From a virus (Duplodnaviria; Heunggongvirae; Uroviricota; Caudoviricetes), in IMG/VR virus record IMGVR_UViG_2698536647_000011, positions 1 to 27,882 of that record: DNA of 27,882 bases. One strand, given 5' to 3'. Positions 3,463-27,362 of this stretch are shown one piece after another; within the stretch, counting starts at the first letter, position 1, and each line of letters begins with the position of its first letter. The notes beneath the pieces are model-generated. The model saw only the letters and a program-made list of their open reading frames with translations, was not told the DNA's origin and did not search any database. The position numbers and the translations under genes were made by a program.

Positions 3463-5384
3463 TATTCATCTCCAGATAATGCCCGCGCGTAATCCGCCAG
3501 GGTCTTGTTATTGTTACGGCTGCCTTCTTCCTCCAGCAGGCTGGCCAGAAGTGAATCAAGATTTAGCTGCCAGCGGGATATGCTTATACGCAGCGCCGCC
3601 AGTGCATAAACAAAGCAATCGAGCGCCTCATTTCGTCGTTTTTTGCTGTCCCATACGATCTTTTTCTTTCCGTCTACCCATTTTTCCACCTGCTCTTCAG
3701 CTGTTAGTTGTTGGGCCTCTGTTAGATCGTAGATTTCTGGGTTATTCGGGAAATGAACCGCTCCCGCCAGCGGCTCGTCTCTTTGCGCCACCAGCGTGAA
3801 ACGGTTATAAATCTGCTCTTTTGCGGTGTCTGTTCCTACCTCTGTGAGGTAAACACCATTCTTGTTACGCTTGCGTGGCATGTTCGCCACTGGCTTTCCA
3901 TAAACCGACGCCCCCTTTATAGGGATCACACGAAACAGACCGTGTTTTTTTGAGCGGTTGTAGACGATGGTGGGATCAATGCCGCCAATATCCCAGCAAG
4001 TGCGGGATATAACCATTTCGAGACCGTTCTGGCGCTTATACGTCCTGTTGATCGCTTCATCAACTCGAGCGAGAGTCGACTCATCATCATGACGACCCAT
4101 AATGATAATTTTGTCGATAAGCCAGCTTTCCTCTCCCGGCCCCCATCCCCAAACACGCATTTCGTAACGGTCAAGCTGGGAGTCAATACCCGCTGTCAGA
4201 TATGCCACTCGCTCCGGCACAGACGCTTCAAAGTGCTCTTTTCGTTCCGCTAAAACTTCAGCATCGGGTCGTTCACCTATTTTCGGTTCCCACGTTTCGC
4301 CCAGGGTCGTGTTAACGAAAGTTTTTCGCTTACCCGTATCACCTTTTGTTTTTATCCAGTCCTTGACGATCTGCACCCAGGTTGTGAACGGGCTATATGC
4401 GGTCCAGATGTGGAATGTAACGCTGTCAGGAGGTTCAATTTCGGTACCGGATGAAGAAAACCAGTTAAGGCCGTCTCGTGTCCAGATACCTGTTTCATCA
4501 CAAATATACCTGGCCTCCAGAAATTCCAGCTCCTGTTGTTTAATCACACAGGCATTGTGTTCACAGAGGTAGTAAACGCTGGCAGGTTCTCCCGGAGACC
4601 ATTTGAAGCCAAATGGTGTCTCTTTATCACCGAATTTCAGATACTGCTCTTCCCCACAGTGTGGGCATGGAACATGGAACCGAAGAAAATGTTCAGACTC
4701 CTTAGCAGCTCTTTCTATCTGGCACGTACCTTTGACTTTCGGTGTAGATCCGCGAATGGATTTCGGCCATACAGAACCCTCAATACGCTTATCACCCAGA
4801 AAGGTGGGAGAACCTTCTTTCTCGATGTCATCATCGAAAGCGGCGAGCTCGTCGTAGCCAGCCACATCAACTGATTTTTCACGGTAGTTTTTTGCAGCCT
4901 TACCGCCCAGGCACCAGAAACCACGACCATTCGAGAAACGCTTCATGCTCAGCGTATTGTCCCGGTGTTTTTTACCGTACCAGGGAGCAAGCGCCAGCAA
5001 CGTCGGAATATCACGAATGGTCGGTTCTACATGAGACTTCATGAAGTTTTCAGCATCACCGTCGGTTGGTAACCATATTAGGGAGTTACGCTGTTTATGT
5101 TGGATGAAATATGCGTAAACGCCGAGCAACATTTTTGAGTAGCCGACACGAGCCGATTTAACGACATTCACCTCGCGAATATAGTCATTACCCATCGCAT
5201 TCATAATTGCACGCTGAAATGGCAGTGTTTCCCAGCGCCCTTCCTGGTAGGCAGACTCTTTCGGGAGATAATAATTCTCATCTGCCCATTCAACTGCTGT
5301 TTGCGGTTGCGGCCGGTACAGCGAACGTAACCCCGCCCGCGCAGAGTGCTGCAGCCCCTTAACCTGACTGTTCGATATATTCAC
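3462..5384 (-). CDS. A: Terminase large subunit (lambda gpA-like)
   Basis: 640 aa, lambda gpA length and position between Nu1 and W; 5' end overlaps Nu1 3' end as in lambda. Confidence 0.95.
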
Positions 5385-5904
5385 TCAGCAACCCCGGTAT
5401 CATTTCATCCAGCGCAGCTGCCTTGTTCATGGCCTTAATGATGTCCTTCTTGAGGAAATCAATATGTCGGTTCTCCAGCTCCGGGAAGCGCCGCTGAACC
5501 GACAGAGGTATTCCATCGAGAATGCTGGCGATTTCTCCGGCTACCCGCGACAGCACGAACGTGCAGAATGCGGTCTCCACCACTTCAGCGGACTCTTTTG
5601 CATTTTTTAATTCCTGAGCGTCAGCCTGAGCTCGCGTAAGTCGGTGTCGCTCATATTCAATCGTGCCAGGTTGAAGATCGGACTCAGAAGCGATACGGAG
5701 ATCTTCAACTTCCTTCCGCAACTTTTCATTTTCTATAGCTGCATCGCGCGCACTGTACCATTCGATTGCAGCAGCAGATTCAAAGAGAACCTCATTACCT
5801 TTGCCACCACCGCGGACAACCGGCATACCTTGCTCCTGCCAGTTCTGAATCGTTCGGACGCTTACCCCGAAAATTTCGGATAAGCGTTTTTTGTTAACCT
5901 CCAT
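5359..5904 (-). CDS. Nu1: Terminase small subunit (lambda Nu1-like)
   Basis: 181 aa; MEVNKKRLSEIFGVSVRTIQNWQEQGMPVVRGGGKGNEVL... is near-identical to lambda Nu1 N-terminal winged-HTH region. Confidence 0.95.
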   Translation of the reverse strand: MEVNKKRLSEIFGVSVRTIQNWQEQGMPVVRGGGKGNEVLFESAAAIEWYSARDAAIENEKLRKEVEDLRIASESDLQPGTIEYERHRLTRAQADAQELKNAKESAEVVETAFCTFVLSRVAGEIASILDGIPLSVQRRFPELENRHIDFLKKDIIKAMNKAAALDEMIPGLLSEYIEQSG

Positions 5905-6149
5905 GGCTTACTCCTGGCAAAAAACAGAGAAAGGAAACAATCAACGGTAAACTTCCGTTTTCCTTGCTCAGCATTTCCTTTCTGGAGAGAGGACGTTTTT
6001 AACAAAAACAATGAGTAAACAAGAAGAAGAACGGAAATGGCATAAACCAGAAAATTTTCATAAATAGCGAGAATCTGCGCGGACGCCGCCCCGTAACAAG
6101 GCGGATCGCCGGAAAGGACCCGCAAACGATAATAATTATCAATTGCACA
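5905..6149 (-). promoter_or_regulatory. cos region (cosB, cosN, cosQ); cosN 12-nt cohesive end predicted at about 6080-6091 (GGGCGGCGTCCG on - strand)
   Basis: Reverse complement of 6060-6125 aligns base-for-base with the lambda genome end junction (...GGTCCTTTCCGG..GTTACG|GGGCGGCG.CC.|CGC...CGCTATTTATGAAAATTTTC); lies immediately upstream of Nu1. Confidence 0.75.
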
Positions 6150-6878
6150 CTATCGACGGCACTGCTGCCAGATAACACCACCGGGGAAACATTCCATCAT
6201 GATGGCCGTGCGGACATAGGAAGCCAGTTCATCCATCGCTTTCTTGTCTGCTGCCATTTGCTTTGTGACATCCAGCGCCGCACATTCAGCAGCGTTTTTC
6301 AGCGCGTTTTCGATCAACGTTTCAATGTTGGTATCAACACCAGGTTTAACTTTGAACTTATCGGCACTGACGGTTACCTTGTTCTGCGCTGGCTCATCAC
6401 GCTGGATACCAAGGCTGATGTTGTAGATATTGGTCACCGGCTGAGGTGTTTCGATTGCCGCTGCGTGGATAGCACCATTTGCGATAGCGGCGTCCTTGAT
6501 GAATGACACTCCATTGCGAATAAGTTCGAAGGAGACGGTGTCACGAATGCGCTGGTCCAGCTCGTCGATTGCCTTTTGTGCAGCAGAGGTATCAATCTCA
6601 ACGCCAAGCGTCATCGAAGCGCAATATTGCTGCTCACCAAAACGCGTATTGACCAGGTGTTCAACGGCAAATTTCTGCCCTTCTGATGTCAGAAAGGTAA
6701 AGTGATTTTCTTTCTGGTATTCAGTTGCTGTGTGTCTGGTTTCAGCAAAACCAAGCTCGCGCAATTCGGCTGTGCCAGATTTAGAAGGCAGATCACCAGA
6801 CAGCAACGCGCCACGGAAAAACAGCGCATAAAGCACTTCATTAGCAGCGCCAGATAGCGTAATGATTTTGTTACTCAT
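6150..6878 (-). CDS. Hypothetical protein (242 aa) abutting cos; no family recognised
   Basis: Long ORF; internal ATG at 6878 (MSNKIITLSGAANEV...) has RBS AAGGAAA; the annotated ORF start at 6917 lacks one. Confidence 0.55.
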   Translation of the reverse strand: MSNKIITLSGAANEVLYALFFRGALLSGDLPSKSGTAELRELGFAETRHTATEYQKENHFTFLTSEGQKFAVEHLVNTRFGEQQYCASMTLGVEIDTSAAQKAIDELDQRIRDTVSFELIRNGVSFIKDAAIANGAIHAAAIETPQPVTNIYNISLGIQRDEPAQNKVTVSADKFKVKPGVDTNIETLIENALKNAAECAALDVTKQMAADKKAMDELASYVRTAIMMECFPGGVIWQQCRR

Positions 6879-7263
6879 GGAATATTTCCTTTTAGGCGTG
6901 AGCCTGTCGCACGGCAATGCCGCCCGAGAGGTAAACGCAACCTAACGGCATCACCCAGGCTCACTACTGAAAGACTCTCTTTGATGTGCGCGTGCGATGC
7001 GCGTAGAAGACTGATTTATCAACCTGTCTTTATATCAGGATTCATTACCTGACTATTTGTGGGTAAAGTTCGTAGTGCGCTGATCGTGCAAAATGATTTT
7101 AGTTGGGAACAGTTCGCAACTCTGTCCCATAAAAATCAGCATATTCCCATCTATCCCATATCCAGCGCATTGACCATCGGGATACTGAAGGGAGATTCCA
7201 TCATCTCTTAGAAAGATCACCATCTCTTTTGTTTCAATTTGCATATAGCTACCTGGAGGATTT

Positions 7264-7878
7264 ATGAATGCAAGGATTTTCATGGACTATTACCATGAGA
7301 TTGATTTTCCATCTTTATTCGCGAGAGCAGTGGAAAGCGATGACGATGTGGGTACTACATTGCGCATTCACCTACTTTGTGAGCGCATGGTCGAAGCATG
7401 GATATGCGCATGCTGTGACTGCCAAGATCTCTTTGGAAGAGATAAAAACAAACTTTTAATCGAATGTAATACTAAAATATCCATGGCGGGAAACCTGGGA
7501 ATCCCCCCGGAACTTATGAAATCACTTAAAACCATCAACTCAATGCGTAATGACCTTGCACACAATCCATCAATACAAAGCATTGCTGATTCAAGGATCC
7601 AGAGCCTGAAGGATACTCTGACTGAATACTTTAAACAGCATCCAACGGAACCCAGCATGGAAGAATCAAAACTGGGTATTTTTAACGCCGAGAATCAATT
7701 AACCGAAGAAGTTTCCTTAGATAGTGACAGTTCAAAAAACAGACTTAAGTTAATCTTGCTGTTCAGCAAGTTAATGCAGGCGTTAATGCAATTAGTTGCA
7801 GCTAATCATAATGGGCGCTGGGATAACCAATTTAGCCAATTCGTTTACCATGTGACCATGAACGCAACAAAGAGATAA
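7264..7878 (+). CDS. HEPN-motif protein (204 aa), possible abortive-infection or RNase-type accessory gene; opposite strand to phage late genes
   Basis: Contains ...LKTINSMRNDLAHNPSIQ..., an R-x4-H arrangement as in HEPN RNase motifs; AT-rich codon usage unlike flanking phage genes; RBS GGAGGA 4 nt before ATG; followed by stem-loops at 7884-7902 and 7915-7935. Confidence 0.55.
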   Translation: MNARIFMDYYHEIDFPSLFARAVESDDDVGTTLRIHLLCERMVEAWICACCDCQDLFGRDKNKLLIECNTKISMAGNLGIPPELMKSLKTINSMRNDLAHNPSIQSIADSRIQSLKDTLTEYFKQHPTEPSMEESKLGIFNAENQLTEEVSLDSDSSKNRLKLILLFSKLMQALMQLVAANHNGRWDNQFSQFVYHVTMNATKR

Positions 7879-7946: not shown

Positions 7947-8144
7947 CTAGTCGTCGAGTTGCAACACACCGTGATCCAGTGATTCTGAATAGGCGATAAG
8001 TCCGGTATAACCGGGGATAATCTCACCATTATCAGCTTCAAATTCAGGAATTGTGCCGGTGGTGATGGTGTATTGAGGCTGGCCATCTTCCTTCGCGAAG
8101 GCTGCCAGGTCTTCAATCTGCTTAGCTGTAAGAACTACTGTCAT
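7947..8144 (-). CDS. Small strongly acidic hypothetical protein (65 aa from second ATG)
   Basis: ORF with GAGGA RBS 6 nt before ATG at 8144; about 12 Asp/Glu versus 2 Lys; downstream of a terminator, so likely own promoter. Confidence 0.4.
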   Translation of the reverse strand: MTVVLTAKQIEDLAAFAKEDGQPQYTITTGTIPEFEADNGEIIPGYTGLIAYSESLDHGVLQLDD

Positions 8145-8161
8145 GCTCATTCCTCAGTTGT

Positions 8162-22708: not shown

Positions 22709-22848
22709 GCGAAAGCCCACCGAAGTGGGCCCGCCATGTCCGGCCTCACCGACCAAAGTTACACCGGAAACAACATTAAAACCAAAGTTAACCCAATGGG
22801 CGCTATCAATGGTCCGGGGATTCTAACACCCAAAAAAGAGGATCTCAC

Positions 22849-25800
22849 ATGGAATTTCCATATGTAGTTAAAGCCACGCAAAAGTCGGGAAAGCCTGATG
22901 CTTTTGTCTGGTTCACTGCAAAAACAGAGGCTCGCGCCAATCTGATGCTGGATGTTGCGCTGGAAGATGCAGGTATCGAAACAGGTAGGGGTAAGGACTA
23001 CGCCAAACCGATTCGCACTGATTTCCCAGTTGTCGACGGCCTGCCGAAAGAAGGTGAAGTTGATTTTACCTGGTGTGATCGCTACGAGCTTCAGGACGAT
23101 GGGCGCACCTGGCTGCCAAAAGCCGCTGGTGTGTCTACTGGTTCCGTTGACGCCCCCTACACACCTACTCCGACCGTAATCGTTGAAGATGCGACTGCGT
23201 CCGAAATTGTCCCGGTTGAAATCCGTACTCCAGCGGTCCGCTTTGCCGTCCATCTGATGAACGATAAATACCAAACCCACGTCACTAAAGAGCAGCAGTT
23301 GGCTGCCAGCGAAATGTCACTGGATGAAGGCAATACATATCTCCATAGCCTGCTTGTGGCAAGGAACGATGTGCCCGCGACCGCCAAACTCAGCCTGAAT
23401 GCTGAGTGGAAAATGATTCGGGCGGTTAAGGACATTTTCACACCAGACGAAGAGCACGAACCAAGATTGATCGCTGCATTCATGTCTGACTGGGTGAACA
23501 CGGATGCCGGTGACCGCAATCAACTGATAGAAGACTGGCGCAGTGGTAAGTTGCAGTTGCTCAAAACTGAAACCAGCAGCGGTGCTAACGTTACAACGGG
23601 TCAAGATCTCACTGTTGAGGACGGCATCCAGGCCGACGAGCACGGCCGGGCAGAAGGTGGCGTCGTTGATAGTGAAGTCGATACCGAAGAGCAATCCCAG
23701 CAGATACAGCAACCGAACCTGATCGTTGTTGCCACCCTGCCTTTCCGCCAGCGCGTACTGGCTCAGTTCATCGGTGATGGTGAATATCTCTATCACATCG
23801 ACGCAGGGCAGAAAAATGAGATTGTCCGCCTTGAGATGGACACCGATGACGCGTACGTCCAGAACCTGCTGCTGGCAGCTGAGAATGTGGAAGCATTCAA
23901 AAAAGCCATTGAGCACGATATTCATAAAGTCGTGAATGCCGTTAAGAAAGTCTTCCCTGTCGATGGAAAAATCCCTGAACTCGCAACCTTAATCCAGTTT
24001 TTGAAATTGTGGTTCGCTACAGATCACATCGACCGCGGTATCCTCATTCGCGAATGGGCCGCCGGTAATCGCATCAGTAGTGTGCAGCGTACTGATTCCG
24101 GCACTAATGCCGACGGCGGTTACGTCACTGACCGTGGACCTGACGCACACCACACACTGGACACTCTCGATTTAGAGATTGCGTGTGCCCTTCTGCCTAT
24201 GGACTTCAACCACTTCGAGATCCCGGGCAGCATTCTTCGTCGCGCTAAAGAAATCGTGACCAAAAAAGAAGAACCATGGAAATCATGGAGCAACATCCTG
24301 CGCAATCAGCCAGGCGTTCTGGGTGTTAACCGCACGGCTATTTTTAACCTGGTACGTATCGCACCGGAAAATATTCATTTAACTCCTGTCGCTCACCTGG
24401 AATTTGTTAACCAGACCATGACAGCCGCGTTCAATTCCGCGGTCGAGTTATTGCCGTTGCATGAGGCTGAACCCGCAGCACAGGAAATTCCCCAACCTGA
24501 AGGTAAGGAGTCTCCGCGCAAATCCTTCTGCACTCACGAAGAGAACCTGCAACGCGTGCGTGAAGAAGGAGCACGCCGCCGCGCAGAGGAAGCGGCAGCA
24601 CAACCGCAGAAAGTCGAACAAGAACTGGTTAAAAATGTCGGCAACGGAATATTCGACGTTACGGCTTTGCTGCAGAACTCAGCAACTCATGGCACGAAAA
24701 AGGCTACGGAGACCACCAGCAATGTGCAGGTTCAAGAAACTGTCAGTGATGAAAAACAAGCTGGTGATGAAGTACAGCCAGGCGAAAGCAGTCTGGAGTC
24801 TGGTGAAGAGTCAGATACCAGCCAGAAGGACGATGTAGACCAGAATACGGATTCTGTCGCCAAAAATAGCGATTCTGTAAGCCAAACCGAACCAGTTGCA
24901 GCACAAACCGAGCCAGAAGCGCAATCTGACGAACCAGCTGTTGTTTATCCCGCTTATTTCGAGCCAGGCCGCTATGAAGGGCTGCCAAACGAGGTTTACC
25001 ACGCCGCCAACGGCATCAGCTCAACCCAGGTGAAAGATGCGCGCGTTTCGCTGATGTACTTCAATGCGCGCCACGTAGAGAAAACCATCGTCAAAGAGCG
25101 CTCAGCGGTGCTGGACATGGGCAACTTGGTGCATGCGCTGGCGTTGCAGCCTGAACTACTGGACGCAGAATTCAGCGTTGAACCGGTGATCCCTGAAGGC
25201 GCATTCACAACGGCCGCGACCCTGCGCGCCTTTATCGATGAGCACAATGCCAGCCTGCCGGCGCTGCTGTCTGCCGACGACATCAAGGTGTTACTGGAAG
25301 AGTACAACGCCACCCTGCCGCCGCAGGTTCCGCTTGGCGCTAACCTGGAAGAAACGGCACAGAACTATATGGCGCTGCCAGCTGACTTCCAGCGTATTGA
25401 TGGTGACCAGAAGCAGACGGCGACGGCAATGAAGGCATGCATTAAAGAGTACAACGCCACCCTGCCGCCGCCGGTTAAAACCAGCGGCAGCCGTGACGCG
25501 CTGCTGGAGCAGTTGGCAATCATCAACCCTGACCTTGTGGCTCAGGAAGCACAGAAACCGGCACCACTGAAAGTGTCCGGTACCAAAGCAGACATGATCC
25601 AGGCCGTGAAGGCAGTCAAACCAGATGCCGTATTTGCCGACGAACTGCTGGATGCCTGGCGCGATAACCCGGAAGGAAAAGTGCTGGTCACCCGCCAGCA
25701 GCTGAGCACCGCGCTGAATATTCAAAAAGCGCTTCTGGCACACCCGACCGCCGGCATGCTGCTGACCCACCCTAGCCGAGCCGTTGAGGTGAGCTACTTT

Positions 25801-26238
25801 GGTTTTGACGAGGAGACGGGCTTGGAAGTTCGTGTGCGCCCTGACCTTGAGATCGACCTGGATGGCGTGCGTATAGGTGCAGACCTGAAAACCATCAGCA
25901 TGTGGAATGTTAAGCAGGAAAGCCTGCGCGCCAGGCTACACCGGGAAATTATTGAACGTGATTATCACCTGAGCGCGGCTATGTACTGCGAAACCGCAGC
26001 GCTGGATCAGTTCTTCTGGATTTTCGTCAACAAAGACGAGAACTACCACTGGATCGCCATCATCGAGGCATCCGCTGAACTACTGGAGCTGGGTATGCTC
26101 GAGTACCGCAAAGCGATGCGCAATATCGCAACCGGATTCGACACAGGTGAATGGCCAGCGCCAATCACTGCTGACTACACCGACGAACTGAACGACTTCG
26201 ACCTGCGCCGCCTTGAAGCGCTGCGTACTCAGGCATAA
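22849..26238 (+). CDS. recE: RecE-like exonuclease VIII (1129 aa) with C-terminal PD-(D/E)xK nuclease domain carrying a tandem-repeat insertion
   Basis: N-terminal ...[10 protein letters not shown]...[24 protein letters not shown]... and ...[37 protein letters not shown]..., C-terminal ...[19 protein letters not shown]..., ...[10 protein letters not shown]...IGADLKT... match Rac RecE segments from memory. Confidence 0.85.
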   Translation: [1129 protein letters not shown]

Positions 26239-26249
26239 GGGGAATGATG

Positions 26250-27362
26250 ATGGAAAACACGAATATCGTAACCGCTGAACAGCAGACTCCAAACACGATC
26301 TCAGCCAGCAATGCCATTTTCAACGTGCAGGCTTTAACCCAGCTTCAGTCTGTCGCCGGGTTGATGGCACAGGCAGCCGTAACGGTGCCTGAGCACCTCC
26401 GCGGCAATCCGGCAGACTGCATGGCCATCATCATGCAGGCGATGCAGTGGGGTATGAACCCTTACGCCGTGGCGCAAAAGACGCACCTGGTTAACGGTGT
26501 CCTGGGATACGAAGCGCAACTGGTTAATGCGGTGATCTCCAGCTCAAACGCCATCGTTGGCCGCTTTCACTATGAGTACGAGGGCGACTGGTCGAAATGT
26601 GCCAGCAGCCGCGAGATAACCGTTAAAAAGCCTGCGAAAGGTGGCGGGACGTACGACAAGAAAGAAATGGTACGCGGTTGGGAAAGTGCTGATGAACAAG
26701 GACTGTCGGTACGGGTAGGTGCCGTTATTCGCGGTGAAAGTGATATCACCTGGGGAGAGCCTGTTTTCCTCTCCAGCGTAATCACACGTAATTCTCCACT
26801 TTGGGTATCAAACCCGAAACAGCAGATCGCTTATCTGGCACTCAAATACTGGGCGCGCCTATATTGCCCTGCAGTTGTTCTTGGTGTGTACACCCCTGAT
26901 GAGATTGAACAGCGCACAGAAAAAGAGATCAACCCAACGCCGCAACGCGTTAGCCTGGCTGATATCTCAGGTGACACCGTCACAACCACGCAAAGCGCAC
27001 AGGAATCGTCGGTAAATGTCGACTCTCTTGCCGATGATTTCCGCGAACGCATCGAATCTGCTCAGGACGTGGATAGCGCCAAATCGCTGCGTGCCGACAT
27101 TGAAACGGCGAAAGCTACGCTGGGATCCGCACTATTCACCGAGCTGAAAAACAAAGCCGTAAAGCGTTATTACCTAGTGGATGCACGCAACAAGGTTGAG
27201 GAGGCTATTAAATCCCTGCCCCAGCCCGACGAGCCGCATGCAGCCGAACGGTTCGCTGAAGCCGAGCGCATGCTTGCATCTTCAAAGCGTCACTTAGGCG
27301 ATGAACTGCACGATCAATTCAGCATCACCCTGGCGGATATGAAACCGGAATACGTGGCCTGA
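26250..27362 (+). CDS. Single-strand annealing protein (Bet/RecT family), partner of RecE
   Basis: ...CMAIIMQAMQWGMNPYA... and ...NPKQQIAYLALKYWARLYCPAVVLGVYTPDE... parallel lambda Bet (...FIALLIVANQYGLNPWT..., ...HPKRMLRHKAMIQCARLAF...); third of three tandem ATGs has best RBS spacing. Confidence 0.8.
   Translation: MENTNIVTAEQQTPNTISASNAIFNVQALTQLQSVAGLMAQAAVTVPEHLRGNPADCMAIIMQAMQWGMNPYAVAQKTHLVNGVLGYEAQLVNAVISSSNAIVGRFHYEYEGDWSKCASSREITVKKPAKGGGTYDKKEMVRGWESADEQGLSVRVGAVIRGESDITWGEPVFLSSVITRNSPLWVSNPKQQIAYLALKYWARLYCPAVVLGVYTPDEIEQRTEKEINPTPQRVSLADISGDTVTTTQSAQESSVNVDSLADDFRERIESAQDVDSAKSLRADIETAKATLGSALFTELKNKAVKRYYLVDARNKVEEAIKSLPQPDEPHAAERFAEAERMLASSKRHLGDELHDQFSITLADMKPEYVA

Follow-up and report, generated by a model that had tools for sequence, protein, structure and literature searches.

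A phi80-type accessory gene between the lysis genes and cos

The DNA analysed here, referred to as the window, is the 27,882-nucleotide IMG/VR virus record IMGVR_UViG_2698536647_000011 (positions 1 to 27,882), and the gene under study occupies positions 6150-6878 of its minus strand. The window represents a lambdoid prophage of phi80 type in reverse orientation, with the order holin, lysozyme, Rz ... tai, ati, the gp66-like open reading frame (ORF), cos, nu1 and terminase. The gp66-like gene is already known: its counterpart, phi80 gene 66, has been catalogued, sequenced and deleted, and is functionally uncharacterized. What the present analysis adds is a clearer map of the protein's domains, the presence of central tail fibre (J) motifs in the product of a gene that neighbours a system directed against J, a reinterpretation of the gene's 'Fur-regulated' label and a structured RNA leader. 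The leader, which is strongly covarying, pseudoknotted and without an Rfam family, is of more interest than the gene itself.

6150-6878, minus strand: gp66-like coding sequence, 242 amino acids plus stop (ATG 6878-6876, TAG 6150-6152), orthologue of phi80 gp66
6876-6893, minus strand: Shine-Dalgarno sequence AAAAGGAAA (6893-6885) and ATG (6878-6876), read from the sequence and invariant across the leader alignments
6885-7004, minus strand: conserved structured RNA leader, 120 nucleotides (covariance model 117.7 bits, E=1e-25)

The initial annotation described a well-formed gene with a good ribosome-binding site, which is borne out by the 242-codon minus-strand ORF and by AAAAGGAAA, spaced ∼7 nucleotides from the ATG. 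The gene is real, as 658 database homologues were found and an exhaustive search yielded 107 representatives on clustering at 50% identity. Genuine relatives reach at most 417 amino acids, and no full-length fibre or J protein is among the representatives. An alternative TTG start at 6917, which would give a protein of 255 residues, was rejected; it lies within the leader helices, and the homologues begin at the ATG. The view that the protein belongs to no recognizable family did not survive database searches. The phi80 protein gp66 (PHI80_66, AFV29203) is 98.3% identical (tblastn), phrog_17079 covers residues 1-242 of 242 (E=7.8e-170), and NCBI has a name for the family, 'Fur-regulated protein', carried by 242-residue homologues. 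The phi80 record itself labels PHI80_66 'ORF x171.28; similar to N15 gp59'. Full-text literature searches on 'x171.28' and N15 gp59 returned nothing relevant, and searches of the protein against NCBIfam and PADLOC gave nothing meaningful. Its function is, as the annotation had it, unassigned, since phi80 gp66 is uncharacterized too and no confident match to a morphogenetic family was obtained.

Codons 17-242 are identical to phi80 gp66 and every difference falls within codons 2-16. In the comparison of window positions 6830-7004 with the phi80 locus (L001 3740-3900), the leader subtype and codons 2-16 differ, after which the genes are identical; the window leader carries a 13-nucleotide insertion hairpin and a GAGAG/CUCUC second pseudoknot, unlike the leader before phi80 gene 66. 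Because codons 2-16 derive, like the leader, from another lineage, a recombination junction lies at the 5′ end of the gene. The 911 bp around the gene are 100% identical in Escherichia coli Nissle 1917 and related strains; the phi80 remnants in DH10B and DH5-alpha match them at 95% identity. The synteny Rz...tai-ati-gp66-cosQ-cosN-nu1 is common to the window and phi80, and the late-strand position after the lysis genes and before the packaging genes is also seen in phi80, mEp213, mEp237 and two further loci (L136 and L137).

The 385 bp upstream of the gene had been taken as non-coding and suggestive of an independent promoter. Both points reflect a misreading of this region, as 6879-7263 holds the anti-Tai gene atiEcA (7053-7283) and the RNA leader, leaving ∼50 nucleotides, and a scan of the minus strand across the same interval identified no sigma-70-like promoter. 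In other phages the leader starts right after an intrinsic terminator, which in many cases is the terminator closing the lysis cassette. This location, together with the lack of a promoter-like site upstream, indicates that the leader RNA comes from upstream read-through. In the model published for phi80, expression of orf64 and of the packaging genes depends on Q (PMC11364771), and gene 66 is most likely part of the same Q-dependent late transcript, the simplest arrangement, in which case its expression would be exclusively late.

A double-pseudoknotted RNA leader precedes the gene

The 120-nucleotide leader comprises three nested helices (a 5′ hairpin, P0, then P1 and P2) and two pseudoknots (PK1 and PK2), and covariation strongly supports all of them:

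7002-6999/6991-6988, minus strand: P0, 5′ hairpin
6964-6956/6906-6898, minus strand: P1, supported by covariation
6955-6946/6922-6913, minus strand: P2, supported by covariation
6997-6992/6912-6907, minus strand: PK1, P0 loop paired with the internal loop between P2 and P1
6979-6975/6930-6926, minus strand: PK2, single-stranded pentamer paired with the P2 apical loop

The window contains a single strong copy, which scores 117.7 bits against 17 bits for the plus strand; this 100-bit difference, and the presence of G-U pairs, show that the RNA has the same sense as the gene. An independent alignment, made with MAFFT from 42 distinct leader sequences, served for the covariation counts. Standard pairs are formed in 98% of the alignment cells, compared with 22-52% when the partners are slid by 1-3 columns, and double-sided changes are seen in 8 of the 27 pairs. 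Covariation scored 0.166 vs 0.074 in shuffles (none of 500 reached the observed value), and the folding z-score is -3.65. PK1 occurs as UCGCAC/GUGCGA, UCUCAC/GUGAGA and UCGCAU/AUGCGA. For PK2, GAGAG/CUCUC is found in 31 distinct sequences and GAAAG/CUUUC in 28, while GAUAA/UUAUC occurs in one locus (L049), and CCGAG/CUCGG and GUCGA/UCGAC occur in two divergent second copies. A search of region 5900-7300 against Rfam 15 (4,227 families) gave no match at gathering thresholds or at E≤5, and full-text literature searches for a leader RNA of rha or kilA genes found no description. The leader is thus apparently undescribed.

Two protein-coding interpretations of the region were rejected. The leader is not a small ORF; such an ORF would lack its ATG in four copies (window, phi80, Fraca and LMessi), and indel lengths do not keep to multiples of three. 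The annotated phi80 gp65 (L001 3730-4029), which overlaps, in antisense, the leader and the beginning of gene 66, is probably spurious as it overlaps the covarying RNA; its counterpart in the window comprises only 51 residues (6702-6857, plus strand). The annotated starts of phi80 rha (L001 2240-2794), CobraSix_82 (L012) and pPE42_gp39 (L015) lie inside the leader, upstream of the Shine-Dalgarno sequence, and the real starts of these rha and kilA-N genes are probably 25-35 nucleotides further downstream. The leader therefore flags probable mis-annotated start codons, phi80 rha being an example.

A pattern scan of IMG/VR combined with the covariance model identified 73 leader copies in 100 sources, with lengths of 105-125 nucleotides. 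They occur in lambdoid phages of Escherichia, Salmonella, Klebsiella, Enterobacter, Citrobacter and other hosts. The leader is nearly invariant across phages with unrelated flanks, always lies at the junction of the lysis cassette and the first accessory gene, and always ends at the Shine-Dalgarno sequence of the next gene. The genes carried behind it, termed cargo, were tallied over 92 instances:

Rha-like: 23 of 92
Winged-helix gp66-like: 16 of 92
Other J-like mosaics: about 20 of 92
Glycosyltransferases: 11 of 92
KilA-N: 6 of 92
HNH and small ORFs: the remainder of the 92

In phi80 both rha and gene 66 are preceded by a copy (L001 2146-2267 and 3740-3846). Two copies are also present at L016 and L093, and a further copy lies at L014 1491-1612. 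The leader is, in summary, a portable 5′ cassette of the post-lysis cargo slot.

Possible roles for such a cassette are translation control, sensing of a ligand or protein, and processing; the leader could be a sensor of riboswitch type, an operator to which a protein binds or a site of self-processing. Pairing of the invariant YCUUUCAG with the AAAGG of the Shine-Dalgarno sequence is conceivable, which would make it an anti-Shine-Dalgarno element. If the leader does regulate or process late mRNA, it would constitute a new point of control over the accessory and anti-defence genes of phages, and would also be a useful marker for cargo slots.

The protein combines a winged helix, distal J motifs and a long helix

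The 242-residue protein can be divided into three segments:

6639-6878, minus strand: N-terminal domain, residues 1-80, winged helix, acidic (AlphaFold2 and Foldseek)
6339-6632, minus strand: middle segment, residues 83-180, distal J motifs (PF09327, BLASTP and profile matches)
6153-6338, minus strand: C-terminal segment, residues 181-242 (AlphaFold2 secondary structure and family alignment)

The AlphaFold2 monomer model, built from a 57-sequence alignment, has a predicted local distance difference test (pLDDT) score of 88-97 over residues 11-70, mostly above 90. Residues 10-80 adopt the order helix, strand, helix, β-hairpin, helix. In a Foldseek comparison with the PDB the top 50 matches to this domain were MarR-type winged-helix regulators (probability 0.96-1.0, E∼1e-3). 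PDB sequence searches, with the single protein or the family profile, gave only chance-level or motif-level matches. In BFVD the domain matches stand-alone proteins of 75-106 residues from diverse phages; it also matches phrog_4365, 16910 and 29914, and in many phages is found alone or in other architectures. At 60-65% identity it is common to phiKO2 Gp59 and several Klebsiella phages. The domain has an isoelectric point (pI) of 5.9, with 8 Lys and Arg compared with 10 Asp and Glu, and no helix-turn-helix or MarR family was matched by sequence in Pfam or NCBIfam. With its acidic character and the lack of a helix-turn-helix sequence-family match, the modelled domain is better regarded as a module for interactions than as one that reads DNA.

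The middle segment contains three motifs characteristic of distal J: YxxxMxxGVE, NGxxFIKDAxIxxGxIxxAxI and YNIxxG...ADKFKV. YCASMTLGVE in the window protein resembles YYAAGMGIGVE in J, LIRNGVSFIKDAAIANGAIHAAAI resembles VIQNGQTFIRASFIQDGTISNAKI, and YNISLG...ADKFKV resembles YNIKVG...ADRFAV. The PF09327 (Phage_Tail_Tip) profile matches residues 119-151 with 23.4 bits, narrowly over the cut-off of 22; these 33 residues, which correspond to profile positions 74-106 of 139, are the closest approach to a known morphogenetic family. PF09327 is matched by 31 of the 57 family members, with a best E value of 4.7e-13. BLASTP aligned the segment with residues 1063-1129 of phi80 J (33% identity over 67 residues, E=3e-4), and the family profile gave a weak PDB match to the F2-pyocin tail fibre (E=0.05) in which the same motif is aligned. 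In the AlphaFold2 model a helix spans residues 98-114, residues 118-180 are unmodelled (pLDDT below 50), and the C-terminal segment forms a long helix (182-230) followed by a short terminal helix. The family alignment shows that the protein ends in the family-wide motif ...PGG(V/L/I)(W/L)....

The gp66-like family is mosaic

Sequence comparison shows that the gp66-like family is extremely mosaic, with at least three unrelated N-terminal modules. In some relatives the winged helix is duplicated, while in others it is swapped for an unrelated module (MKYLSL.../MTGLEIIETDEG...). In the variant P0200, at the same tai-ati-X-nu1 locus, a J-type fn3 domain and a tail-tip module replace the winged helix. 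The distal helical end with ...PGG(L/I/V)(W/L)... is kept throughout these variants, and the nu1-equivalent genes in related loci carry PF07471 (Phage_Nu1).

A functional meaning of the proximity to cos was considered and rejected, as homologues in HK97-like phages do not lie beside cos; in these and other phages the homologues precede glycosyltransferases or other genes. In the HK97-like phages mEp390, Fostie, CharmingMan, LMessi, SaltyDalty and SP-016 (L003, L004, L005, L006, L007 and L011, respectively) the slot holds one or two glycosyltransferase genes, which either follow the gp66-like gene or take its place; the annotation of one notes a similarity to gp56 of mycobacteriophage Corndog. 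The occurrence of glycosyltransferases in the leader slot makes glycosylation of the virion, or another late glycosylation, possible. In Nissle 1917 (L139, NZ_CP022686 446208-454118) the tai-ati-gp66 block is identical and the packaging module behind it is another one, with a DUF1441 small subunit and a 700-residue large terminase where the window (5359-6150 compared) has Nu1/A. As the Nissle 1917 packaging module differs beyond the identical block, a mosaic boundary lies directly after the gene.

A conserved Fur box belongs to the cos/nu1 region

The features that follow the gene were located as follows:

6127-6141, no strand assigned: palindrome CGATAATAATTATCA resembling a Fur box, in agreement with the 7-1-7 Fur motif at 13 of 14 positions, located between the TAG and cosQ
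6115-6121, minus strand: cosQ, GGGTCCT, by alignment; the phi80 record annotates cosQ and the sticky end (background on cosQ, PMC4669245)
6080-6091, minus strand: cosN cohesive end GGGCGGCGTCCG, 12 nucleotides, by alignment with the phi80 and lambda right ends
5359-5904, minus strand: nu1, terminase small subunit, the first gene after cos

The gap between the TAG and cosN is 58 bp, in agreement with the ∼60 bp first estimated. The slot was also correctly described as empty in lambda, where the final ∼550 bp before cos contain no annotated gene. The cohesive end GGGCGGCGTCCG differs from that of phi80, GGGCGGCGACCT, at positions 9 and 12, although the gene before cos is otherwise that of phi80; N15 is reported to differ from the lambda cohesive end at the same two positions.

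The palindrome CGATAATAATTATCA is the best Fur-box match of the whole window, and its 6-1-6 core GATAATAATTATC (GATAAT-A-ATTATC, 6128-6140) is unique in the window, with 0.02 matches expected by chance. It lies 9 bp past the stop codon of the gene and ∼230 bp upstream of the nu1 ATG; no Fur box was found in 6879-7263, and the only strong one is 3′ of the stop. The same palindrome occupies the same place in phi80 and in lambda (GATAATCATTATC), in the latter with the same spacing to cosQ. The Fur box is overlapped by a -35/-10 pair (6156 to 6129, minus strand) that reads towards cos and resembles a promoter, as a consensus match only. The homologues of nu1 in the cryptic prophages of K-12 are nohA and nohB. 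The Fur sites of these K-12 genes lie at -233 (nohA) and -133 (nohB), and the nohA fragment came out of an in vivo selection for Fur binding, which a gel shift confirmed (PMC2189734). The conservation of the palindrome at lambda cosQ, and the match of its position to the nohA site at -233, show at the sequence level that the Fur site is a feature of lambdoid cos/nu1 regions and not a promoter element of the gp66 gene. As the Fur box is 3′ of the gene, the name 'Fur-regulated' is positional, and the database entry rests on the Fur site of cos/nu1. The label, shared by gp64 and gp66, most likely derives from a common Fur-titrating clone, as the names 'ORF x171.8' and 'ORF x171.28' suggest. A study of phi80 in iron-restricted medium concluded that the availability of iron has no influence on lysis, and makes no mention of Fur-regulated phage genes.

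The gene lies beside the Tai immunity system and is dispensable in phi80

The two genes upstream of the leader correspond to a phi80 immunity system and its antidote:

7053-7283, minus strand: atiEcA orthologue, 76 amino acids (phi80 gp64, anti-Tai), 99% identity; phrog_20632
7264-7878, plus strand: taiEcA orthologue, 204 amino acids (phi80 gp63), 99% identity

The two orthologues are divergent, with a 20-bp overlap at their 5′ ends. The phi80 prophage expresses TaiEcA as an immunity protein against other phages, whose tail assembly it blocks, and AtiEcA, expressed late, is the antidote to TaiEcA. Mutations that confer escape lie in the C-terminal part of J, the central tail fibre, and the C-terminal region modelled in the Tai study is J 913-1192 (PMC11364771). 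The J stretch similar to gp66, residues 1063-1129, falls inside this region. A distant Tai homologue (28% identity) lies upstream of a leader and a gp59-like gene in Salmonella phage SP-016.

The Tai orthologue contains an RNDLAH (Rx4H) motif and has weak PADLOC matches to CARF-HEPN models, hinting at an HEPN-like fold; the term 'HEPN' was searched for in the Tai study (PMC11364771) and not seen. At the place of phi80 rha the window has a 67-residue ORF (phrog_9518; 7947-8150, minus strand). This ORF is preceded by an intrinsic-terminator-like hairpin (8185-8168), and no leader copy is present there.

When phi80 orf62, 64, 65 and 66 were deleted singly, only the orf64 deletion lowered the titre, and phi80 deleted for orf62-66 is viable and still makes plaques (PMC11364771). 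As only the orf64 deletion had a phenotype, gp66 is dispensable and is not the anti-Tai factor. The phi80 gene is therefore non-essential, and the deletion data speak against an essential function in tail assembly.

Possible roles of gp66

Our favoured explanation is that the gp66-like gene is a non-essential accessory or cargo gene, the last of the late operon before cos. Q-antiterminated read-through from pR′ would transcribe it through atiEcA, and translation would start from the double-pseudoknotted leader that ends in its Shine-Dalgarno sequence. Late in infection gp66 might form a soluble J-like trimer, through its J-like segment and long helix. In a conflict over tail-tip assembly the trimer would bind factors that are aimed at the distal central fibre, or divert them, distal J being the region targeted by the neighbouring TaiEcA and by its relatives in other elements. 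A conflict role is favoured because the J-like stretch corresponds to the region of J that Tai targets, the gene is found in the tai-ati block of several lineages (the fn3-J variant included), a distant Tai lies upstream of the gp59-like gene in SP-016, and the extreme module shuffling resembles that of arms-race genes, being a hallmark of genes for conflict or receptor-related functions. That gp66 is a trimeric J-like accessory protein in a tail-fibre-directed conflict is nevertheless a tentative proposal, possible and still short of probable.

Several observations weigh against this explanation. Deletion of orf66 caused no titre defect in phi80 carrying its own TaiEcA (PMC11364771), and gp66 is thus unneeded against self-immunity while AtiEcA is present. 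The J-like stretch is 33% identical over 67 residues in phi80, and nothing significant was detected in Fraca, which weakens the more specific idea that gp66 is a close mimic of the phage's own J and is at odds with a simple self-mimicking decoy. Most gp66-like loci have no detectable Tai nearby, and adjacency to tai may thus reflect a shared insertion hot spot only. Finally, the pLDDT below 50 across residues 118-180 comes from a monomer model, and we infer the trimer.

The fibre-type motifs could alternatively indicate that gp66 is a virion-associated accessory fibre or decoration, in which the N-terminal module acts as the anchor, the J-like trimeric shaft with its helical end projects, and the whole is dispensable in the laboratory, as are the lambda side tail fibres. 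Such a protein would be in keeping with the late-operon position of a non-essential gene, with PF09327 and the NGxxFIKDAxI motif shared with J and the F2-pyocin fibre, and with a mosaicism that is fibre-like in having a conserved N-terminus and variable distal parts; the SP-016 homologue is annotated as COG4733, a tail component, and glycosyltransferases follow the gene in HK97-like phages. The gene is, however, far from the tail cluster, the multiplicity of unrelated N-terminal modules argues against a single virion anchor, and the extreme C-terminus, usually the most variable part of receptor-binding fibres, is conserved. When the absence of full-length fibres from the 107 representative relatives is also considered, we view a virion fibre as rather unlikely. 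The winged helix raises the further prospect of a DNA-binding late regulator or antirepressor-like protein, which would bind DNA or a repressor through this domain and oligomerize through the C-terminal helices, in parallel to Rha and KilA-N. The MarR-like fold and the adjoining cos are in keeping with such a function, as is the leader cargo, in which the Rha-like and KilA-N-like genes both represent DNA-binding-domain families. Set against this, the pI of the N-terminal domain is acidic, its predicted third helix (KSGTAELREL) lacks the basic or polar residues of typical recognition helices, and no Pfam helix-turn-helix matches. In addition, adjacency to cos is unconserved among the homologues, and variants that have lost the winged helix keep the remaining protein. 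A regulator is consequently distinctly unlikely.

Least probable is a Fur-regulated lysogenic-conversion gene (moron), expressed from its own prophage promoter under iron scarcity, an explanation implied by the database name and by the promoter suggested in the initial annotation. The names 'Fur-regulated protein' and 'ORF x171.28' in NCBI and the phi80 record, and a near-perfect Fur box 9 bp from the stop codon, would suggest as much. This box is, however, 3′ of the gene and outside its promoter, lambda carries the palindrome even though it lacks a gene of this kind, and the distance of the box from nu1 matches that of the nohA site. Moreover, upstream of the gene there is no promoter-like site, and the sequence there is taken up by atiEcA and the leader, whose RNA has to originate from further upstream. 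We consider this explanation very improbable. The probability that remains after the conflict role and these three alternatives is left to something else.

A broader proposal unites the RNA with its cargo: the leader would represent an undescribed class of double-pseudoknotted functional RNA, serving as a portable cis-regulatory cassette, its gp66-type cargo would mimic J, and tai-ati-leader-gp66 would form one conflict module. Taken as a whole this is a speculative view, which we put forward as a possibility and not as the expected outcome.

Other features of the window

Elsewhere in the window an Rfam match to isrB, an Hfq-binding small RNA family, was found at 22710-22807 on the minus strand (38.2 bits vs a gathering threshold of 35, E=0.0012). 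It adjoins the start of a 1129-residue RecE-like gene (22849-26238), which is followed by RecT (26244-27362).

Comparison with known systems

The closest known counterpart is phi80 gp66, which is likewise the last gene before cosQ/cosN and has taiEcA and atiEcA as neighbours. The window differs in that codons 2-16 and the leader are of another lineage, and that a 67-residue ORF takes the place of the rha module in phi80. With TaiEcA and AtiEcA gp66 shares a three-gene block upstream of the packaging genes, it lies on the late strand as atiEcA does, and it carries sequence resembling the region of J targeted by Tai. It differs in having no sequence similarity to either protein and in not being required for phi80 to escape its own Tai.

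The resemblance to J (phi80 gp21) resides in the short repeated distal motifs YxAGMGxGVE, FLADRFAV and NGQxFIxxxFIxDGxIxxAKI; an fn3 domain of J type is, in addition, present in one gp66 locus variant. The two proteins are otherwise dissimilar. The window protein comprises 242 residues compared with ∼1,190, has no Phage-tail_3/baseplate-hub part or other tail domain, and is encoded by a non-essential gene between the lysis genes and cos, outside the tail cluster, while its own N- and C-terminal modules are absent from J. With MarR regulators it shares the fold of residues 10-80 (helix, strand, helix, β-hairpin wing, helix). In contrast to these regulators the domain is acidic, has no sequence-family match and is without the MarR dimerization helices, and the superposition is only partial (TM 0.2-0.3 on the full model).

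The leader, finally, is similar to riboswitch-like leaders and small phage ribozymes in being compact, with nested helices, two pseudoknots and invariant unpaired nucleotides, and in lying directly 5′ of the Shine-Dalgarno sequence. Its topology, in which a hairpin loop pairs with an internal loop and a single strand with an apical loop, is not known to resemble that of the HDV-like, twister or pistol ribozymes. The leader in the window differs from these known RNAs in matching no Rfam family.

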